Shown piece by piece: positions 2,194 to 35,617 of a stretch of DNA of 38,800 nt. Source of the DNA: Chloroflexota bacterium. Lineage in GTDB: Bacteria; Chloroflexota; Dehalococcoidia; Lucifugimonadales; UBA3495. The stretch covers positions 1-38,800 of the forward strand of contig JAPPJA010000422.1 of assembly GCA_028874675.1 (NCBI GenBank), in the 5' to 3' direction. The position numbers were made by a program, and so were the translations under genes. A model generated the notes under the pieces. The model ran no database searches and was not told the origin of the DNA. It worked only from the letters and a program-made list of their open reading frames with translations. Within the stretch, counting starts at the first letter, position 1. Each line of letters begins with the position of its first letter.

Positions 2194-2233
2194 AACGCCC
2201 TCGGACCATGTGGTCCGGGGGCGTTGTTTTGTT
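2194..2233 (+). terminator. Rho-independent terminator of the first SBP gene
   Basis: aacgccctcggacc (2194-2207) pairs with ggtccgggggcgtt (2212-2225), 13 of 14 bp, loop atgt, followed by gttttgtt. Confidence 0.75.
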
Positions 2234-2246
2234 CACCACAATAGTT

Positions 2247-2255
2247 TGCTAGAAT
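2247..2255 (+). promoter_or_regulatory. Possible extended -10 promoter element (TGcTAGAAT) for the DUF262/HEPN cassette
   Basis: TG at 2247-2248 and TAGAAT at 2250-2255, directly after the upstream terminator and about 30 nt before the ATG at 2286. No good -35. Confidence 0.3.
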
Positions 2256-2285
2256 GAAGGATATTCATCCATTGTGGAGATTTCA

Positions 2286-3353
2286 ATGGTGATGGCTGAA
2301 GAAGAAGAACTGTTGGTAGAAGAAACTGAACCCTCGGATGATGAAGAAGTTCAGGATGTGCGCTATGACATAATGCCATACCCCGCCGACTACACTCTAA
2401 AAGGTCTGTACGACAAATGGCAAGCTGGCCAACTGCTGATTCCAGACTATCAGCGCAACTATGTCTGGACACAGAAACAGGCAAGTCAATTCATCGAGTC
2501 GTTTCTCTTGGGCTTGCCTGTTCCCCAAGTGTTCTTGTACCGGGATCGTTCTGATCCCAGGTTAACGGTTATTGACGGTCACCAGCGTCTCAGCACTATC
2601 GCCCGCTTTTATAGCGGGGAATTTCGCCTAAGGGATGTAAATTCCTTATGGGCAGGTCGGGCTTACGATGACCTCAGTGACTACGATAGGCCAATTCTCG
2701 ACGACTCAACCTTGCGGGCAATAATAATCAGGCAGATACAACCCGATAACAATTCGAGCATGTATCAGATTTTCCGAAGGCTCAACACTGGGGGCACCCA
2801 ACTGAATGACATGGAGATTAGGCGAGCGATTTCTTTCTCGCGCGAGGGTGCGGTTGGATTCTTGGATCGCCTCAACGAGAACGATGACTGGCGATCAATC
2901 ATTGGAACCAGCGAACCAGCCAAACGATTCCGTGATGTAGAATTGGTCCTTAGAGTTTTGGCGCTTTCTGAAAAATGGATGAACTACGGTGAACGAGAGT
3001 ATGGCGGACAGTCCATGAAGGCCTTCATGGACAAATATATGGAAGTCCTTGACAAGGAAGATTCTCCTACCTTAGACCAGTTAGAAGAACGGTTCAACGA
3101 AGCATGTCGAGCAATCGCATCACAGTTGGGAGAGAAACCTTTTCACCTAAGAGGAAGGCTGAATCTTGGTGCCTTAGACTCTGTGATGGCCTGTGCCATT
3201 GAATTAGGGGAGTCCCTAAAGGAGCAAATTAAAGAGGAATACGCAACATTGCGCGAAAACGACGAGTTCCTTGCAGCAGTGACACATGACACTAGCCATA
3301 CTACCGAAGTTAAACAGCGATTTAACTTGGTTCATTCTGCCTTTAGTGGCTAG
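2286..3353 (+). CDS. DUF262 domain protein (GmrS-like ParB/Srx-fold NTPase), no recognisable DUF1524/HNH nuclease domain
   Basis: ORF 2274-3353. ATG 2286 is preferred because GGAGA (2276-2280) lies 5 nt upstream; GTG 2274 is the alternative. Motifs IPDYQRNYVW, VIDGHQRLSTI and FRRLNTGGTQLNDMEIRRA. Helical C-terminal third. Codons are visibly AT-richer than the flanking genes. Confidence 0.85.
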   Translation: MVMAEEEELLVEETEPSDDEEVQDVRYDIMPYPADYTLKGLYDKWQAGQLLIPDYQRNYVWTQKQASQFIESFLLGLPVPQVFLYRDRSDPRLTVIDGHQRLSTIARFYSGEFRLRDVNSLWAGRAYDDLSDYDRPILDDSTLRAIIIRQIQPDNNSSMYQIFRRLNTGGTQLNDMEIRRAISFSREGAVGFLDRLNENDDWRSIIGTSEPAKRFRDVELVLRVLALSEKWMNYGEREYGGQSMKAFMDKYMEVLDKEDSPTLDQLEERFNEACRAIASQLGEKPFHLRGRLNLGALDSVMACAIELGESLKEQIKEEYATLRENDEFLAAVTHDTSHTTEVKQRFNLVHSAFSG

Positions 3354-3357
3354 GACT

Positions 3358-3852
3358 ATGCCAGATCTGTTGCCGTTGACCGGGGCTGCAATTGCAGACT
3401 ACCGGCAGCACATGAGCCAACATCCCGATACTGACCCCGTCATATTGGCCTACTTGAACAGACATATCAACGGGTTAATGTGTGCAGAGATTGAACAAGT
3501 AGTAACCAAGTTAATTTGCGAAAAGCTAGACGCAGGGCAGCAACATCCAGAAGCCCGGAGTTTTTTTCCAAGTTTCCTTGATGCAAGACGCATGGGTTGC
3601 TTAAGGAACGCGCGGGTCGATGAAATGCGAACTACCTTGTCCGCATTTGGATTGTATTATCGGAACAAGTTTAATGAACTATTGGACGGAGGCTTGAGTT
3701 CCGACGACATCAATAAACTGAACGCAGCGGTAAAGAAACGAAACGAAGACGCTCATAGCACGCCTCCAACCATCACTTTCCAAGAAGTCGAAGAAACCTA
3801 TGATGTTGCTACTGCCGTAATGGACGCAGTCCAACAAACCCTGCAAACCTGA
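3358..3852 (+). CDS. Small HEPN-domain protein (predicted RNase, Rx4H motif)
   Basis: ATG 3358 is 4 nt after the DUF262 stop (TAG 3351-3353). The upstream part of track ORF 3286-3852 overlaps that gene and was discarded. 164 aa, all-helical appearance, KKRNEDAH (R-x4-H) near the C-terminus. Low GC, like its partner. Confidence 0.7.
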   Translation: MPDLLPLTGAAIADYRQHMSQHPDTDPVILAYLNRHINGLMCAEIEQVVTKLICEKLDAGQQHPEARSFFPSFLDARRMGCLRNARVDEMRTTLSAFGLYYRNKFNELLDGGLSSDDINKLNAAVKKRNEDAHSTPPTITFQEVEETYDVATAVMDAVQQTLQT

Positions 3853-3872: not shown

Positions 3873-5303
3873 CTACCTCACCGGCCCGCCCAGGGGTGAA
3901 CGGGGCGAACCGCTTTCCAGGAATCCGCCGTAGCCGGGCTGCTGCTCCAGTTCTCCCTGGTTGAGCAGAACCTCTCCCCGCAGCAACGTCATGTGGGGGC
4001 GTCCCTGTACCTGCCAGCCCTCAAACAGGGTGTAGCCGGCGTTGCTGTGGTGGTCCCTGGAAGTAATGATGCGGTCGCTCCCGGGGTCCAGAATCAGCAG
4101 GTCTGCGTCGGAACCCACCTGGATGACCCCCTTGCGGGGGTAGAGGCCGAAGATGCGCGCCGGGTTCTCCGACATTACCCGCGCCAGCCACCAGATCGGC
4201 AGTCCTCGCTTCACCACGCCCTCGCTGTACATTAAAGGCACCAGGGTCTCCACGCCCGGGGACCCGAAGGGCACCGAGGCGCCGTTAGCGTCCACGAAAA
4301 TGTTGTCCCACCCCACCTGCTTCAGCTCCTGGGGGTAGGGCGCATGGTCGCTGGCGGTGATGGAGATGTGCCCCTGTTCCAGGCCCCGCCACAGGGCGTC
4401 CTGGTCCGGGCCGTCGGCCGGCCGCAGGGGCGGACCGATCTTGGCCAGGGGGCCGTACTTGGCCATTTCCTCGTCGGAAAGCAGCAGGTACTGGGGGCAG
4501 GACTCGGTCCAGATGCGCTGTCCCAGGGACTGGGCCTGCTTGATTCGTTCCAGGCCAAGCTGGGTGCTAAGGTGCACCACGTAAGTAGGACAGTTGGTTG
4601 CTCCGGCCATCTTTATGGCCCGGTTGATGGCCTCTTCCTCGGCCCAGTCGGGGCATGCCGAGGGGAAGTCGGTGGGGTGGGTGTGCCCTTCCGAAAGCAG
4701 CTTGTTCTCCAGGTACTCGATGATGTTCCCGCTCTCGCAGTGAAGCTGCAGGACGCCGCCGCCTTTCGCCACCATTTCCATTGACTCGCAGATATAGTCG
4801 TCGTCGCACATGCGGTAGGGACGCTTCTTGTAGGTCATGAACATCTTGTAGGACTTGACGCCCATTGCCAGGGCCTCGGGCAGGCTGTTCAGGATGCTGG
4901 GGCGGTTCTGCAGGATGAAATGGAAGGCGAAGTCGGTAACTGCCGTGCGCTCCACTTCCTCGCGGCAGCGGTTGATGGCCTCGGGCAGGGTCTCGTCGCC
5001 CTCCAGGTTGTAAGTGCCGAAGGGGACCAGGGTGGTCAGGCCGGCGTGGGCGGCGGCCAGTGACCCCAGGGCATAGTTGTCGTGGCCGTCCAGGTGGACG
5101 TGGCAGTCAATCAGCCCAGGCAGCACGTACATTCCCGAGGCGTCAATGTACTTGTCCGCCGGGGGCAGCAGGTTTTCCGGGCCAATGGCAGCGATCTTTC
5201 CCCCGTCAATGGCAATGGAGGCCTCGTAAACCTGGGAGGAGGTAACTATCCGGCCTCCTACGACAATGGTATCCACGTGCCGGTCGGTGCGGGTGGTGGT
5301 CAT
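3873..5303 (-). CDS. Cyclic amidohydrolase, dihydropyrimidinase/D-hydantoinase family
   Basis: 476 aa. Metal-binding DCHVHLDG, carbamylated-Lys context SYKMFM, HCE, VVHLS and ASDHAP motifs typical of hydantoinase/dihydropyrimidinase. GGAGG lies 8 nt upstream of the ATG at 5303. High GC. Confidence 0.85.
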   Translation of the reverse strand: MTTTRTDRHVDTIVVGGRIVTSSQVYEASIAIDGGKIAAIGPENLLPPADKYIDASGMYVLPGLIDCHVHLDGHDNYALGSLAAAHAGLTTLVPFGTYNLEGDETLPEAINRCREEVERTAVTDFAFHFILQNRPSILNSLPEALAMGVKSYKMFMTYKKRPYRMCDDDYICESMEMVAKGGGVLQLHCESGNIIEYLENKLLSEGHTHPTDFPSACPDWAEEEAINRAIKMAGATNCPTYVVHLSTQLGLERIKQAQSLGQRIWTESCPQYLLLSDEEMAKYGPLAKIGPPLRPADGPDQDALWRGLEQGHISITASDHAPYPQELKQVGWDNIFVDANGASVPFGSPGVETLVPLMYSEGVVKRGLPIWWLARVMSENPARIFGLYPRKGVIQVGSDADLLILDPGSDRIITSRDHHSNAGYTLFEGWQVQGRPHMTLLRGEVLLNQGELEQQPGYGGFLESGSPRSPLGGPVR

Positions 5304-5329
5304 GGGGGGCCTCCTTGCGGGGGTTAGGG

Positions 5330-5911
5330 TTATGTATCGAGAGATTCCAGGTAACTGAAGAGCCGGTTGCAGGCAGGGGAGGCTGTACGGACTTTGGCAG
5401 GGTCTATGGCTTCCAACAAGCGGGGACCATGGTTAGTCTTGTGATATCGGCCTTTAGTGGTTGCCCTTGTGGCATCGGCCAACCCGCTCAGCACGTCATC
5501 TTTGGGAATTTCCTCAATGGCCGGATTGGCAGGGAGGCGGTTAGCCGAGAAGTCTCGACCATAATAAGCGCTGAGGGCCTGCTTGTCAGCCAGAAACCAG
5601 GATTCCATAACCTGCACCATGAAGTGGATACGGTCGTCAGATACATTTAAACCTGTGGCGTAGTCCCAGTGGTCATGTTGACGAACTTCCTGAAAGAGAT
5701 TGGTGGCATACGGTTTCTCGGCGTCGATCAAAAGGACATTAACCGCCTCGGGATAGTTCTTCAGGCCGGACGTAAAATCGGCTATGGCGTTGGCCTTGCA
5801 AGGCACCGGGGCAATTCTGATGCCGGGCAGTCTGAACCTTTCGAAGAACTTACTGAACCCTATTCGCAGGCTCCGGTCTCCCTCGAAATATACCCGGACA
5901 GCAGTCGCCAT
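5330..5911 (-). CDS. DUF4276 family protein (Toprim-like signature)
   Basis: 193 aa. N-terminal strand plus acidic motif VRVYFEGD, then VLLIDAE (DxD-like) and MESWFLAD. Its start codon directly abuts the stop of the upstream ATPase gene (5911/5912). Lower GC than the flanks. Confidence 0.75.
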   Translation of the reverse strand: MATAVRVYFEGDRSLRIGFSKFFERFRLPGIRIAPVPCKANAIADFTSGLKNYPEAVNVLLIDAEKPYATNLFQEVRQHDHWDYATGLNVSDDRIHFMVQVMESWFLADKQALSAYYGRDFSANRLPANPAIEEIPKDDVLSGLADATRATTKGRYHKTNHGPRLLEAIDPAKVRTASPACNRLFSYLESLDT

Positions 5912-7123
5912 TTAGAACCTGGTTCCCCCAATATGCCCGTGCAACCACAGCTCCCCTAACTTATACCGCTCCAGGTAAGACTCGAGCTCTTCCTTCTTCA
6001 ACCTATTGAACTCGGTCCCGGTATCCGGGTAGCGTTCACAGATAACCACGCTTTCCGGATCTTCCCAAAGGTGGTCAATCAACTCCGCCGAGTGGGTGGT
6101 GACGATAATCTGGGTGCGCTGAGAGGCCTCTATCAGTAACTTGGCGACCTGGTGGATTACGTCGGGGTGCAGGCCTAGTTCCGGTTCTTCAATGCATATG
6201 AGCGGGGGCGGATGGGGATGGCAGAGTATGGTGAGCAAGGCCAGGAATCTTAGTGTGCCGTCGGACAGTCGGGCGGCCGGCACAGGGTTATTCAGGCCTT
6301 TTTCGCGAATCCACAGCTGAGCTGTGTTGGCAAATATATCTATGCCCAAGCTTTCGTAAGTCTCATAGAATCGTCCAAGTTGTTCTTCGATAGTGGGCAT
6401 CACCGGTTCCCGCTTCAACCGGTTCAACACCAAGGCCAAGTTGGAAAAATCCTCGTACAATGCATCAGCGGGAGTATCAGTAGGTTGTGGCATACGGATA
6501 GCGCTTTTGCGCCCCATGTTCCATTCTCGGTAGAGGTGGATAACATTCATCTGTTCGCCGACATGAGTCATCTCAGGGTAGAACGAAGGGTCCCTTCGTT
6601 GACTAAATACTGATTGGTTCAGTTTCAGTTCGCCCAAACCAATTGGTTGGAACCAATAGTTCTCAAAGGGGCTGTCCGACATTCCTGCTGTATTCCAATT
6701 CCAAACGGCTAGGTTTCCTATCCCCCGGTTCAGATCAACTACTCTAAATGGAAGATTATCCGTATGACCAACTGAGTCAACGTATTCCATGCGTTCATAT
6801 TCTATGAATGGTTGCCAGCCCCACTGAGACAGCCCTACTGAATAACGTAACCCCACAGACCCGGGCGGGTGAGCAAGCGTCGCTACCAATCCACTAGTGT
6901 CGTTGTGGGTTCTACGGCCCTTCCAGAACCATTCTGATATTCCACCATTTGAACCCAAGAACCCTGCCAAATCCCTCGGCAAAGCTTGCAATAAAGCCAT
7001 GATCTCGATGAAGTTTGACTTCCCCGAAGCATTGGGGCCTACCAGGACGTTCAATGGACGCATTTCCAGTTCTACATCTCGGAAGGAAAGCATTCCATTA
7101 ACTTTTATCGAATTGAGCAGCAT
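5912..7123 (-). CDS. ABC/SMC-like ATPase (AAA_21/AAA_15 type, OLD/PARIS-AriA-like class)
   Basis: Walker A GPNASGKSN, signature-like LSDGTLRFLAL, Walker B/D-loop LICIEEPELGLHPD, H-loop VTTHS. ATG 7123 (MLLNSIKVNG...) is preferred; the track ORF extends to a TTG at 7168. A TATAAT on the minus strand lies at 7176-7171. Confidence 0.85.
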   Translation of the reverse strand: MLLNSIKVNGMLSFRDVELEMRPLNVLVGPNASGKSNFIEIMALLQALPRDLAGFLGSNGGISEWFWKGRRTHNDTSGLVATLAHPPGSVGLRYSVGLSQWGWQPFIEYERMEYVDSVGHTDNLPFRVVDLNRGIGNLAVWNWNTAGMSDSPFENYWFQPIGLGELKLNQSVFSQRRDPSFYPEMTHVGEQMNVIHLYREWNMGRKSAIRMPQPTDTPADALYEDFSNLALVLNRLKREPVMPTIEEQLGRFYETYESLGIDIFANTAQLWIREKGLNNPVPAARLSDGTLRFLALLTILCHPHPPPLICIEEPELGLHPDVIHQVAKLLIEASQRTQIIVTTHSAELIDHLWEDPESVVICERYPDTGTEFNRLKKEELESYLERYKLGELWLHGHIGGTRF

Positions 7124-7188
7124 AACTAACCCTGGCGGAAGGGCGATTCCCAAATTGGAGACTTGCAAAGATTATACACAGTCAAAGA

Positions 7189-8070
7189 CTATATACCCCC
7201 TCTCCACCTTCCCACCCCCTCCCGCAAGCGCCCGAACCCCAGTTCCTCGCATAGCTGCTGGTAGGGTTGCTGGTGGGCGCCTTGCCATTCCAGGTCGGGG
7301 ACGCTTTCGGTAATGGGGACGTCCAGTCGGAGGGTGGCCAAGTGGCGGTAGAGGAGGGCGGCTTCCATGTTGTCGGCCAGGCTGGCGGCCAGGGACTGGG
7401 CTCCCCGCACGTTGATGGCCCAGTCCGCCGCCTCCGCGGGGATGGCCTCAATGTGGTCGTAGTGGTCCAGCACCTGGGCGGTGCCCTTGGCCCCCCAGCG
7501 GGGAATGCCGGGGATCCCGTCGGCGCTGTCGCCCACCAGCCCCAGGTAATCGGGGATTGACGCGGGACCCACCCCGAACTTTTCCCGCACGCCGTCCTCG
7601 TTGGTGACTATGTCCCGGCGCCGGTCCAGGGCCACCACGCGGTCGCCGCGAATGACCTGCGACAGGTCCTTGTCCGGCGAACACAGGACTATTTGCTCTA
7701 CGCCGGGCTCCTCCTGCCAGCGCACCGCCGCTGCGCCCAGGGCATCGTCCGCCTCGAATTCCGTCATCGGCCACACCACCAGGCCCAGGGCCGCCGCCGC
7801 CCGCTCCGCCAGGGGAAACTGGGCCAGCAGCTCCGGAGGTGTGCCCTCTCCCGTTTTGTAACCGTCAAACAACCGGTTGCGGAAGGAAAGGATTTCGCTG
7901 TCGAACGCCACGGCAACGTGGGAAACGTCGTCCTGACGCAGCAGGCTGATGAGAGTCTGCACCAGGCCCCGAACCGCTCCCACCTCGCGGCCGTCGGGCG
8001 CAGAAATGGAGGGCATTGCGAAGTAGGCCCGGAACAGCTCATAAGTCCCGTCAACCAGGTGAACTTTCAT
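7189..8070 (-). CDS. 5'-3' exonuclease / flap endonuclease (PolI N-terminal-domain-like, FEN family)
   Basis: MKVHLVDGTYELFRAYFA, EADD, SPDKDL and an H3TH region GIPGIPRWGAKGTA. ATG 8070 has an A/G-rich RBS. The track ORF starts at GTG 8091, inside the repeat element. Confidence 0.85.
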   Translation of the reverse strand: MKVHLVDGTYELFRAYFAMPSISAPDGREVGAVRGLVQTLISLLRQDDVSHVAVAFDSEILSFRNRLFDGYKTGEGTPPELLAQFPLAERAAAALGLVVWPMTEFEADDALGAAAVRWQEEPGVEQIVLCSPDKDLSQVIRGDRVVALDRRRDIVTNEDGVREKFGVGPASIPDYLGLVGDSADGIPGIPRWGAKGTAQVLDHYDHIEAIPAEAADWAINVRGAQSLAASLADNMEAALLYRHLATLRLDVPITESVPDLEWQGAHQQPYQQLCEELGFGRLREGVGRWRGGI

Positions 8071-34872: not shown

Positions 34873-35087
34873 CCTTTATTGAAATGGTTTTGAAGGTTGA
34901 ATCCTTCCATCCAGGCCCCATGTCCAAAGGGCACATCGTGGTTTAGGGTGAGCAACCAACTCGCAAACGCTCCCACCACGAGGCTGGCAGGAAGGGTAAG
35001 GAAAGGTGGAATCAACGCGTGAATTTGGCAAGGTAACGCTTGCGGCGCGAATGCCCCCTGACAGATACGGGACCGGAGGTTTTTGCT

Positions 35088-35408
35088 GTGGTAAGCACTA
35101 TTCTCAAGTGTTACCTTTGGCGAAGTGATAACGAATGGGAAGCTCTTTGCGTGGACTTTGATATAGCCGCTCAAGGCGAAACCTATGAGGAGGCCTTTGA
35201 GCAGCTAAAAGGTGCCATTGAAACTTATGTGGAATACGTTCACTCCCTTCCACAACATGAGCATTTGAAGTTTTTTACTCGTCGCTCTCCCCTTGCCCTT
35301 CGCATTAAGTTGGCGCTGTTTTCCAAGATAACTGGCCTCCTCAGACCTGTTTCCAACAACGGGCCGAAAGGCACTGTCCAGGAAACCTTTGAATATGCTA
35401 CGACGTGA
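35088..35408 (+). CDS. hicB: HicB-family antitoxin (UPF0150-like)
   Basis: GTG 35088 lies 8 nt after GGAGGT; the track ORF starts at TTG 35040. WEALCVDFDIAAQGETYEEAFEQLKGAIETYVEYV matches the HicB N-terminal fold pattern. Its stop overlaps the hicA start (GTGA). Low GC. Confidence 0.7.
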   Translation: MVSTILKCYLWRSDNEWEALCVDFDIAAQGETYEEAFEQLKGAIETYVEYVHSLPQHEHLKFFTRRSPLALRIKLALFSKITGLLRPVSNNGPKGTVQETFEYATT

Positions 35409-35617
35409 GTTACGGCAGGTTCGTGGATATATTGGAAGGTAACGGGTTTCACCTTGAAAGACAGAGAGGCTCTCATCACATATACGAAGGTTACGTTAAC
35501 GAGCAGCGAAAGTCAGTTACTGTAAGCTACTCGCGACGGAACCAGGATATTAAGGCGGGGACACTCAGTAGCATGATTCGTCAATCAGGACTGCCTAGGA
35601 AGTTGTTCCGTAGATAA
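35405..35617 (+). CDS. hicA: HicA-family mRNA interferase toxin (YcfA-like)
   Basis: 70 aa. FVDILEGNGFHLERQRGSHHIY...GTLSSMIRQSGL is typical of HicA, with the catalytic His in GSHH. Confidence 0.8.
   Translation: MSYGRFVDILEGNGFHLERQRGSHHIYEGYVNEQRKSVTVSYSRRNQDIKAGTLSSMIRQSGLPRKLFRR

Follow-up and report, generated by a model that had tools for sequence, protein, structure and literature searches.

A PD-T4-2-type DUF262-HEPN gene pair, probably a horizontally acquired defence locus, in a Dehalococcoidia genome

In a 38,800-nucleotide stretch of DNA from a Chloroflexota bacterium of the Dehalococcoidia (GenBank assembly GCA_028874675.1, contig JAPPJA010000422.1, positions 1 to 38,800 of the forward strand; hereafter the window), two adjacent genes, A and B, encode a DUF262 protein without a DNase domain (open reading frame 1, ORF1) and a small HEPN protein (ORF2). 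Judging from sequence comparisons, we consider this locus to be probably (at a probability of about 0.75) a defence pair of the PD-T4-2 type with a predicted RNase-type effector, acquired by horizontal transfer. The first-pass annotation of this DNA had put the pair forward as new; it matches a named system, an outcome which that annotation itself had listed as telling against its proposal. The architecture is already known and has little discovery value, since it appears in a table from 2013 and received its name, together with proof of antiviral activity, in 2022. The table of Anantharaman et al. 2013 includes the entry 'Ribo L-PSP-HEPN ... operon with ParB'; the annotation had cited that work for small HEPN families next to ParB-like genes.

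PD-T4-2 is described as 'DUF262, HEPN' in Table S1 of Vassallo et al. 2022 (PMC9519451). The locus, from E. coli ECOR65 (QOYX01000002, 338334-339873), measures 1540 bp and carries two ORFs, which were assigned by HHpred to PF03235 (A, 99.7%) and to PF18735 RiboL-PSP (B, 97.8%, residues 23-162). It protected E. coli K-12 from T4 when carried on a plasmid, whereas its deletion from native ECOR65 restored T4 plaquing, and in E. coli it acts on T-even phages, which have modified cytosines (PMC9519451). PD-T4-2, Menshen and Dazbog are DUF262 systems that do not carry DUF1524 (PMC10952713, PMC12065111). The earlier remark that no such pair had been characterized experimentally is thus wrong for defence, PD-T4-2 being able to block T4, but true for the mechanism, for which we found no published account in the literature searched.

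The two genes and their products

The pair and the elements at its borders are located as follows.

2286-3353, plus strand: gene A (ORF1; PD-T4-2_A/NsnA-like), 355 amino acids, likely ATG start
3358-3852, plus strand: gene B (ORF2; stand-alone RiboL-PSP-family HEPN), 164 amino acids, predicted RNase effector
3351-3360, plus strand: A-B junction, with the TAG stop at 3351-3353, 4 nucleotides and the ATG at 3358
2194-2235, plus strand: intrinsic-terminator-like hairpin and T-run; stem 2194-2225 with 14 pairs, 10 of them GC; tail GTTTTGTTCA
2247-2255, plus strand: TGcTAGAAT, resembling an extended -10 box and lying upstream of ORF1; candidate promoter only

For ORF1, the ATG at 2286 is favoured as start, as it is preceded by GGAG at 2276-2279 and as the public gene call (P0033) also has 355 amino acids; the alternative is a GTG at 2274, which would give a protein of 359 amino acids (2274-3353). 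The longer in-frame reading of ORF2 from 3286 is unsupported, since this start is used by no homologue and all homologues begin with MPxLLPLT. ORF2 therefore starts 4 nucleotides past the ORF1 stop, as the annotation had it, and this tight spacing suggests that the two genes are co-translated.

ORF1 carries the DUF262 motifs IPDYQRNYVW, VIDGHQRLSTI and FRRLNTGGTQLNDMEIRRA in the order previously given, corresponding to the patterns QRxxxW, DGHQR and FxxLNxGG. The Pfam search identified GmrSD_N/DUF262 alone (E = 1.4e-27, residues 44-186), with no second family, DUF1524 included, at E<=1; by profile, a DUF1524/HNH domain is thus absent from ORF1, and DUF1524 was also absent from the four relatives of A that were checked by Pfam. 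The motif residues Q56/R57/W61, D97/G98/R101 and R165/N167/G170 are invariant in 39 relatives of A from Dehalococcoidia, E. coli and Rhodococcus. In PADLOC, the best match of ORF1 was NsnA (1.1e-66, full length), and PD-T4-2_A (PDLC04027) was matched at 2.1e-42, with residues 13-357 aligned to model positions 10-361 of 363. NCBIfam offered no model for either ORF1 or ORF2.

The AlphaFold2 (AF2) model of ORF1, with a mean pLDDT (predicted local distance difference test) score of 83.7, consists of a disordered acidic tail (residues 1-26) and an alpha/beta ParB/Srx-like domain (residues 29-182) followed by nine helices (residues 189-353), and contains neither a beta-hairpin nor a beta-beta-alpha-Me module. 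The profile searches and the model hence agree with the first-pass annotation, which had found no DUF1524-type motif in ORF1 and had described its C-terminal part as helical. When the model was compared to known structures with Foldseek, BrxU was the best structural neighbour (probability 1.0), and the CTP-binding proteins ParB and Noc as well as SspE were also recovered; a nuclease fold was not among the matches. A profile search of solved structures retrieved BrxU and other long DUF262 proteins only, and no PD-T4-2-like complex. In the model, the C-terminal helical domain (residues ~189-353) is consistent with a ParBDB-type domain. The ParBDB domains of NsnA, DndB, GmrSD and SspE have eight conserved helices in common, and the study on Menshen predicted that this domain binds DNA (PMC12065111). 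The formula 'effector swap on a GmrSD-like chassis', by which the annotation had summarized the locus, is therefore loose, since ORF1, with DUF262 and an all-helical ParBDB-type domain, is nearer to the NsnA/PD-T4-2_A type than to GmrSD. We also considered a conserved PFH...N...D patch in the C-terminal domain of A (residues 285-298) as a cryptic His-Me motif, and rejected it: it lies in an inter-helix loop with no beta-hairpin, and Pfam identified no nuclease.

The first residues of ORF1 (1 to about 27, window positions 2286-2366; MVMAEEEELLVEETEPSDDEEVQDVRY) form an acidic tail that is predicted to be disordered. Its acidic character is kept in almost all of 80 related genomes of bacteria and archaea, with a median of 9 D/E versus 1 K/R, and a pattern of the form xSE..D..s.P.Y recurs across them. 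We did not meet an earlier description of this tail in the literature. It may, speculatively, serve as a nucleic-acid mimic or as a docking element.

ORF2 was assigned by Pfam to HEPN_RiboL-PSP (PF18735; E = 4.4e-14, 53.3 bits versus a cutoff of 28.4), which specifies the subfamily of the HEPN protein proposed earlier. Its R-x4-H motif corresponds to R128/H133 within KKRNEDAH. In 28 relatives, including the partners from E. coli and Rhodococcus, R128 is invariant and H133 nearly so, the lone exception being a sequence that looks frameshifted; given this conservation, the motif is a feature of the family and not a chance match. The AF2 model of ORF2 is all-alpha (mean pLDDT 87.6). All 32 close homologues of ORF2 have ~160 amino acids, and an exhaustive HMMER search with a narrow ORF2 profile (E<=1e-3) collected 407 clusters at 50% identity, nearly all of them stand-alone proteins of 150-170 amino acids. 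Two subtypes of B can be told apart by a 4-residue 'sFFP' insert. A 503-residue protein, P0189, was examined as a possible A-B fusion and discarded as an assembly artefact, being garbled by frameshifts in both halves and devoid of the R-x4-H motif. One ORF2 homologue (P0031) was named 'ribosomal 50S subunit-associated protein YjgA (DUF615)' by JGI, and looks mis-annotated.

Conservation of the pair and its relation to PD-T4-2

The association of the two genes was analyzed from both sides. All 5 loci examined from the side of B carry a GmrSD_N gene 3-4 nucleotides upstream. From the side of A, a scan of species-representative genomes yielded 80 loci, in 74 of which a HEPN ORF follows directly 3' of A, mostly with a junction of -4, -1 or +4 nucleotides. 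The remaining six comprise an ORF-start artefact, an insertion sequence between the genes, a truncated remnant, a short contig that shows no HEPN ORF and two Cenarchaeum loci without B. The two genes are thus conserved neighbours across genomes, a point that the annotation had proposed to check. In one Dehalococcoidia locus (L084, 5217-6400), what is likely an insertion element, with two transposase-like ORFs recognized by eye, lies between the DUF262 and HEPN genes and constitutes a natural disruption of the operon.

The nearest relatives of A come from Dehalococcoidia metagenome-assembled genomes (MAGs; 52-71% identity), and the remaining A loci from Acidobacteria, Planctomycetota, Proteobacteria, Latescibacterota, bacteria of the candidate phyla radiation, Thaumarchaeota, the methanogenic Methanoregulaceae and Nanoarchaeota. 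The family, which also occurs on plasmids and in phages, is thus far wider than E. coli. Viral sequences in IMG/VR provided 41 loci with A relatives; B was detected by profile in 15 of these, and PF18735 was found in 8 of 10 representative downstream ORFs of the remainder; taken together, at least 33 of the 41 loci have B.

The sequence of B changes far more rapidly than that of A. At loci whose A protein shares 35-40% identity with ORF1, BLASTP usually fails to detect B, and the identities of the two proteins are partly decoupled (77% for A with 54% for B on one contig, 61% with 63% on another). A tblastn search of plasmids with ORF2 found nothing, which reflects this fast divergence and not absence, since HEPN partners were found when starting from A. 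The same search with ORF1 retrieved 197 records. Among these, IncX1 plasmids of E. coli and Salmonella, a 3.9-kb plasmid of E. coli and pROB02 of Rhodococcus carry a DUF262 gene directly followed by a gene annotated 'HEPN domain-containing protein'. In addition, a stepping-stone DNA search showed that ten E. coli chromosomes carry a DUF262-HEPN pair; in the one inspected (NZ_CP025859, 4583524-4585294), a P2-like prophage harbours the pair, with cI on one side and the integrase gene on the other. Vassallo et al. (PMC9519451) report that P2 has a further defence hotspot besides that between the replication-endonuclease and portal genes.

The B proteins of these plasmid and prophage copies all belong to PF18735, and when the ORF2 clade was aligned by hhalign with the HEPN partners from E. 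coli and Rhodococcus, the probability was 97.4% (E = 9.6e-12) over 146 columns. The PADLOC model PD-T4-2_B is evidently narrow: it matched the prophage B protein at 1.4e-8, its best score over the E. coli and viral copies tested, and the B protein of the 3.9-kb plasmid at 4.4e-4, further copies reaching only about 1e-4, and it did not match the IncX1 and Rhodococcus B proteins. Since the effector diverges so fast, the B model fails and copies are probably missed; current profile sets thus probably miss most copies of the pair. Such under-detection affects studies that take a census of defence systems in environmental lineages.

In its overall organization, the window pair resembles PD-T4-2. 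A is a DUF262/GmrSD_N protein within the range of about 350-385 amino acids and lacks DUF1524; it has a full-length match to the PD-T4-2_A profile, although NsnA scores higher, so that the profile alone is not discriminating. B is a small PF18735 HEPN protein with R-x4-H, and A lies directly 5' of B on the same strand, in a pairing that is conserved.

Borders and surroundings of the locus

The GC content of the pair (0.47-0.50) is lower than that of the flanks on both sides (0.61-0.66), in agreement with the earlier observation that the two genes are AT-richer than their neighbours. The terminator hairpin at the end of the upstream gene is the left edge of this low-GC insert. Of the two upstream signals that had been reported, the terminator, with its 14-bp stem and T-run, was confirmed; the TGcTAGAAT element is present, but a sigma-70 scan gave it no score, so that it stands by its resemblance to the consensus only, and the promoter rules of Dehalococcoidia may differ. 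On the other side, ORF2 converges on a high-GC housekeeping gene that encodes an amidohydrolase, also as described. The other genes considered in the window are the following.

260-2158: SBP_bac_5 gene upstream of the pair, with the terminator hairpin at its end
3873-5303, minus strand: high-GC amidohydrolase gene, convergent with ORF2 (ORF list and Pfam)
5330-5911, minus strand: HEC-01B/DUF4276 TOPRIM-like protein (PADLOC HEC-01B, 7.4e-55)
5912-7168, minus strand: HEC-01A, ABC/AAA_21 ATPase (PADLOC HEC-01A, 4.8e-134)
35040-35408, plus strand: 122-amino-acid ORF before hicA with a 4-nucleotide overlap, possibly a HicB-like antitoxin; weak DUF7387 match
35405-35617, plus strand: HicA toxin gene (PF07927, 4.2e-13)

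Two related loci (L001 and L002) share synteny with the window, with an SBP_bac_5 or CoA-transferase gene upstream and an amidohydrolase and/or 5'-3' exonuclease gene downstream, whereas in two others (L004 and L005) the pair is found in a context unrelated to that of the window. The low GC content and the variable flanks in related genomes thus point to a mobile cassette in a variable region, and indicate that the pair was probably acquired horizontally.

HEC-01 forms a second low-GC cassette of two genes in the window (5330-7168, minus strand), 1.5 kb from the pair. The syntenic locus L002 lacks it, so that it represents a separate insertion. The preprint in which HEC-01 was named (10.1101/2024.01.29.577857) observed no defence by it when assayed. 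In another Dehalococcoidia MAG (L013), HEC-01 (5525-7330, minus strand) is convergent on the pair (3938-5498) with a gap of 27 nucleotides, and its DUF4276 protein is 64% identical to that of the window; the HEC-01 and DUF262-HEPN cassettes therefore recur together in this lineage. The hicA gene and the 122-amino-acid ORF, for their part, sit in another low-GC patch at 34.8-36.0 kb.

Predicted mechanism, alternative explanations and comparison with known systems

HEPN domains dimerize to form RNase sites. A could act as sensor and switch, binding invader nucleic acid, which might be modified DNA as with the T-even phages of E. coli, and would couple this binding to the binding or hydrolysis of nucleoside triphosphates (NTPs) at the DGxQR pocket. 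It would thereby release or activate B which, probably as a dimer like other HEPN RNases, would cut RNA and halt translation, so that phage growth would be blocked or infection would become abortive. We infer that B is an active RNase, that A acts as the sensor, that control runs from A to B and that the target is RNA. In GmrSD, BrxU and SspE the DUF262 domain is an NTP-dependent sensor or switch, while DUF1524 does the cutting (PMC10952713, PMC12065111). It is plausible that, in the present pair, a ParB-like sensor of NTPs or DNA would license an RNase in place of a DNase; for the specific logic, in which sensor A activates RNase B, we would give roughly even odds. A more detailed version can be proposed only tentatively, and we regard it as somewhat unlikely: A would be an NTP-gated, ParB/Noc-like DNA-binding switch licensing the HEPN RNase, with the acidic tail as an auto-inhibitory mimic, or as a dock for B, that invader DNA displaces. 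If true, this would be the first ParB-fold nucleotide switch that controls an RNase effector, and would explain how the entire PD-T4-2 family works, in archaea as well as bacteria. For experiments on the mechanism of PD-T4-2, concrete handles are offered by the strict coupling of A and B, by their intact NTPase and R-x4-H sites and by the conserved acidic tail at the N-terminus of A.

Several observations weigh against the assignment of the window pair to PD-T4-2 and against a defence role with an RNase effector. ORF2 has no match to the PADLOC PD-T4-2_B profile at E<=1, which we attribute to divergence, and ORF1 scores higher on NsnA than on PD-T4-2_A, so that the choice of PD-T4-2 over Menshen rests on the partner gene. 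ORF1 and ORF2 are, moreover, tied to PD-T4-2 through PADLOC profiles and the intermediate E. coli copies, and not through the ECOR65 proteins themselves. The ORF2 model gave nothing significant with Foldseek against the PDB and a viral library; the HEPN proteins at the top of the non-significant PDB entries, namely AF_0298 (probability 0.95, E = 0.14, TM score 0.39-0.48), Csm6 and HEPN-MNT toxins, corroborate the Pfam assignment weakly. PADLOC matches at 1e-10 amounted to a handful among 133 immediate neighbours in the 80 genomes (with crude gene calling and no background control), which tends, if anything, to speak against an association with defence islands. As neighbours rarely match defence models, guilt by association is weak, although the scarcity of such genes fits the remark of Vassallo et al. 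(PMC9519451) that systems of this kind escape defence-island screens. Lastly, the literature searched states nothing on whether PD-T4-2 acts directly or by abortive infection, or on cleavage of RNA by B.

The scarcity of defence genes among the neighbours would also fit a toxin-antitoxin (TA) or addiction module, in which A, as a protein antitoxin or regulator, would control B, a constitutive RNase toxin, the pair mainly stabilizing mobile elements rather than sensing phage. The pair represents two of only four annotated genes on the 3.9-kb E. coli plasmid and directly follows the replication initiator gene on IncX1 plasmids, the overlap or near contact of its genes is reminiscent of TA operons, and the nearest folds to ORF2 include HEPN toxins that have a protein partner, such as HEPN-MNT. 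However, A has 355 amino acids, NTPase motifs that are conserved throughout and an additional all-helical domain, far in excess of the needs of an antitoxin; in E. coli, the homologue gives protection from T4 and the native host becomes sensitive once it is deleted, and Vassallo et al. do not include PD-T4-2 among the TA-like systems that they list. We thus judge a TA module to be unlikely, while noting that it is compatible with the defence reading, as abortive infection can be brought about by a TA module. It could also be argued that the pair is a split enzyme resembling type IV restriction DNases, in which A would cut modified DNA through a nuclease activity of the ParB-like kind, with B as an adaptor that has no catalytic part: BrxU, which is structurally closest to A, is a type IV enzyme of the GmrSD family, ParB-fold proteins have historically been annotated as nucleases, and the T-even phages on which PD-T4-2 acts have modified cytosines. 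Yet neither Pfam nor the model revealed a His-Me, HNH or DUF1524 domain in A, the cutting in GmrSD, BrxU and SspE is done by DUF1524 and not by the DUF262 NTPase/sensor, and the invariant R-x4-H of B argues for a catalytic role, so that we hold this explanation to be very improbable.

The full-length match of ORF1 to NsnA, its best in PADLOC, raises the question of whether the locus could be a degenerate or variant Menshen system (NsnABC), with ORF1 as NsnA and an ABC ATPase and nuclease nearby. The AAA_21 gene at 5912-7168 would be a candidate, as it matches NsnB weakly (6.8e-18). This ATPase is nevertheless HEC-01A, paired with HEC-01B/DUF4276 on the opposite strand and beyond a housekeeping gene, and it is missing from the syntenic locus L002. 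In the published order, NsnA is followed by NsnB and a third gene (PMC12065111), whereas no ABC ATPase or NsnC-type gene comes after ORF1 and a HEPN gene follows A in 74 of the 80 relatives; PD-T4-2 is, in addition, listed as a separate DUF262 system (PMC12065111). A Menshen variant therefore appears extremely improbable, and we retain a PD-T4-2-type defence pair as our interpretation.

Comparison to the individual systems leads to the same placement. Menshen NsnA (Millman 2022, Li et al. 2025) is like ORF1 in having an N-terminal loop, a ParB-DUF262 domain with the three motifs and a multi-helix C-terminal domain of the ParBDB type, a likeness seen in both the PADLOC match and the AF2 model. 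The window pair differs in the absence of the NsnB ABC ATPase and of NsnC (inPIN and nuclease). Instead of NsnB directly 3' of NsnA, the next gene encodes the stand-alone HEPN protein of 164 amino acids, and the nearest ATPase, HEC-01A, is 2 kb away on the opposite strand; there is no third gene, ORF2 being convergent with the amidohydrolase gene. Since neither NsnB nor NsnC follows ORF1, Menshen as published is excluded. GmrSD, BrxU and SspE share with ORF1 the DUF262 NTPase domain with its DGxQR pocket, but ORF1 is about half as long, lacks their C-terminal DUF1524 His-Me finger nuclease (Pfam at E<=1; helical model), and has a predicted effector that is separate and of the RNase type; these systems are excluded on account of the missing DUF1524. 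ORF2, for its part, shares an R-x4-H motif in an all-alpha domain with HEPN effectors and toxins such as Csm6/Csx1, HEPN-MNT, AbiD/F and ApeA, and differs from them in having no CARF domain, MNT partner or RNA antitoxin. Its partner is a ParB-like DUF262 NTPase, in which Pfam did not find the NTP_transf domain of an MNT protein.

PD-T4-2 has the same two genes in matching order, over a total of 1540 bp versus 1567 bp in the window, with A a DUF262 protein without DUF1524 and B a PF18735 HEPN protein of ~160 amino acids, and both loci are, to judge from their settings, mobile or horizontally acquired. The window locus differs in its host, a member of the Dehalococcoidia (Chloroflexota), and in its chromosomal location, which is not obviously within a prophage. 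Its A protein shares only about 31-36% identity with the E. coli plasmid copies (tblastn), and ORF2 is too diverged for the PD-T4-2_B model.

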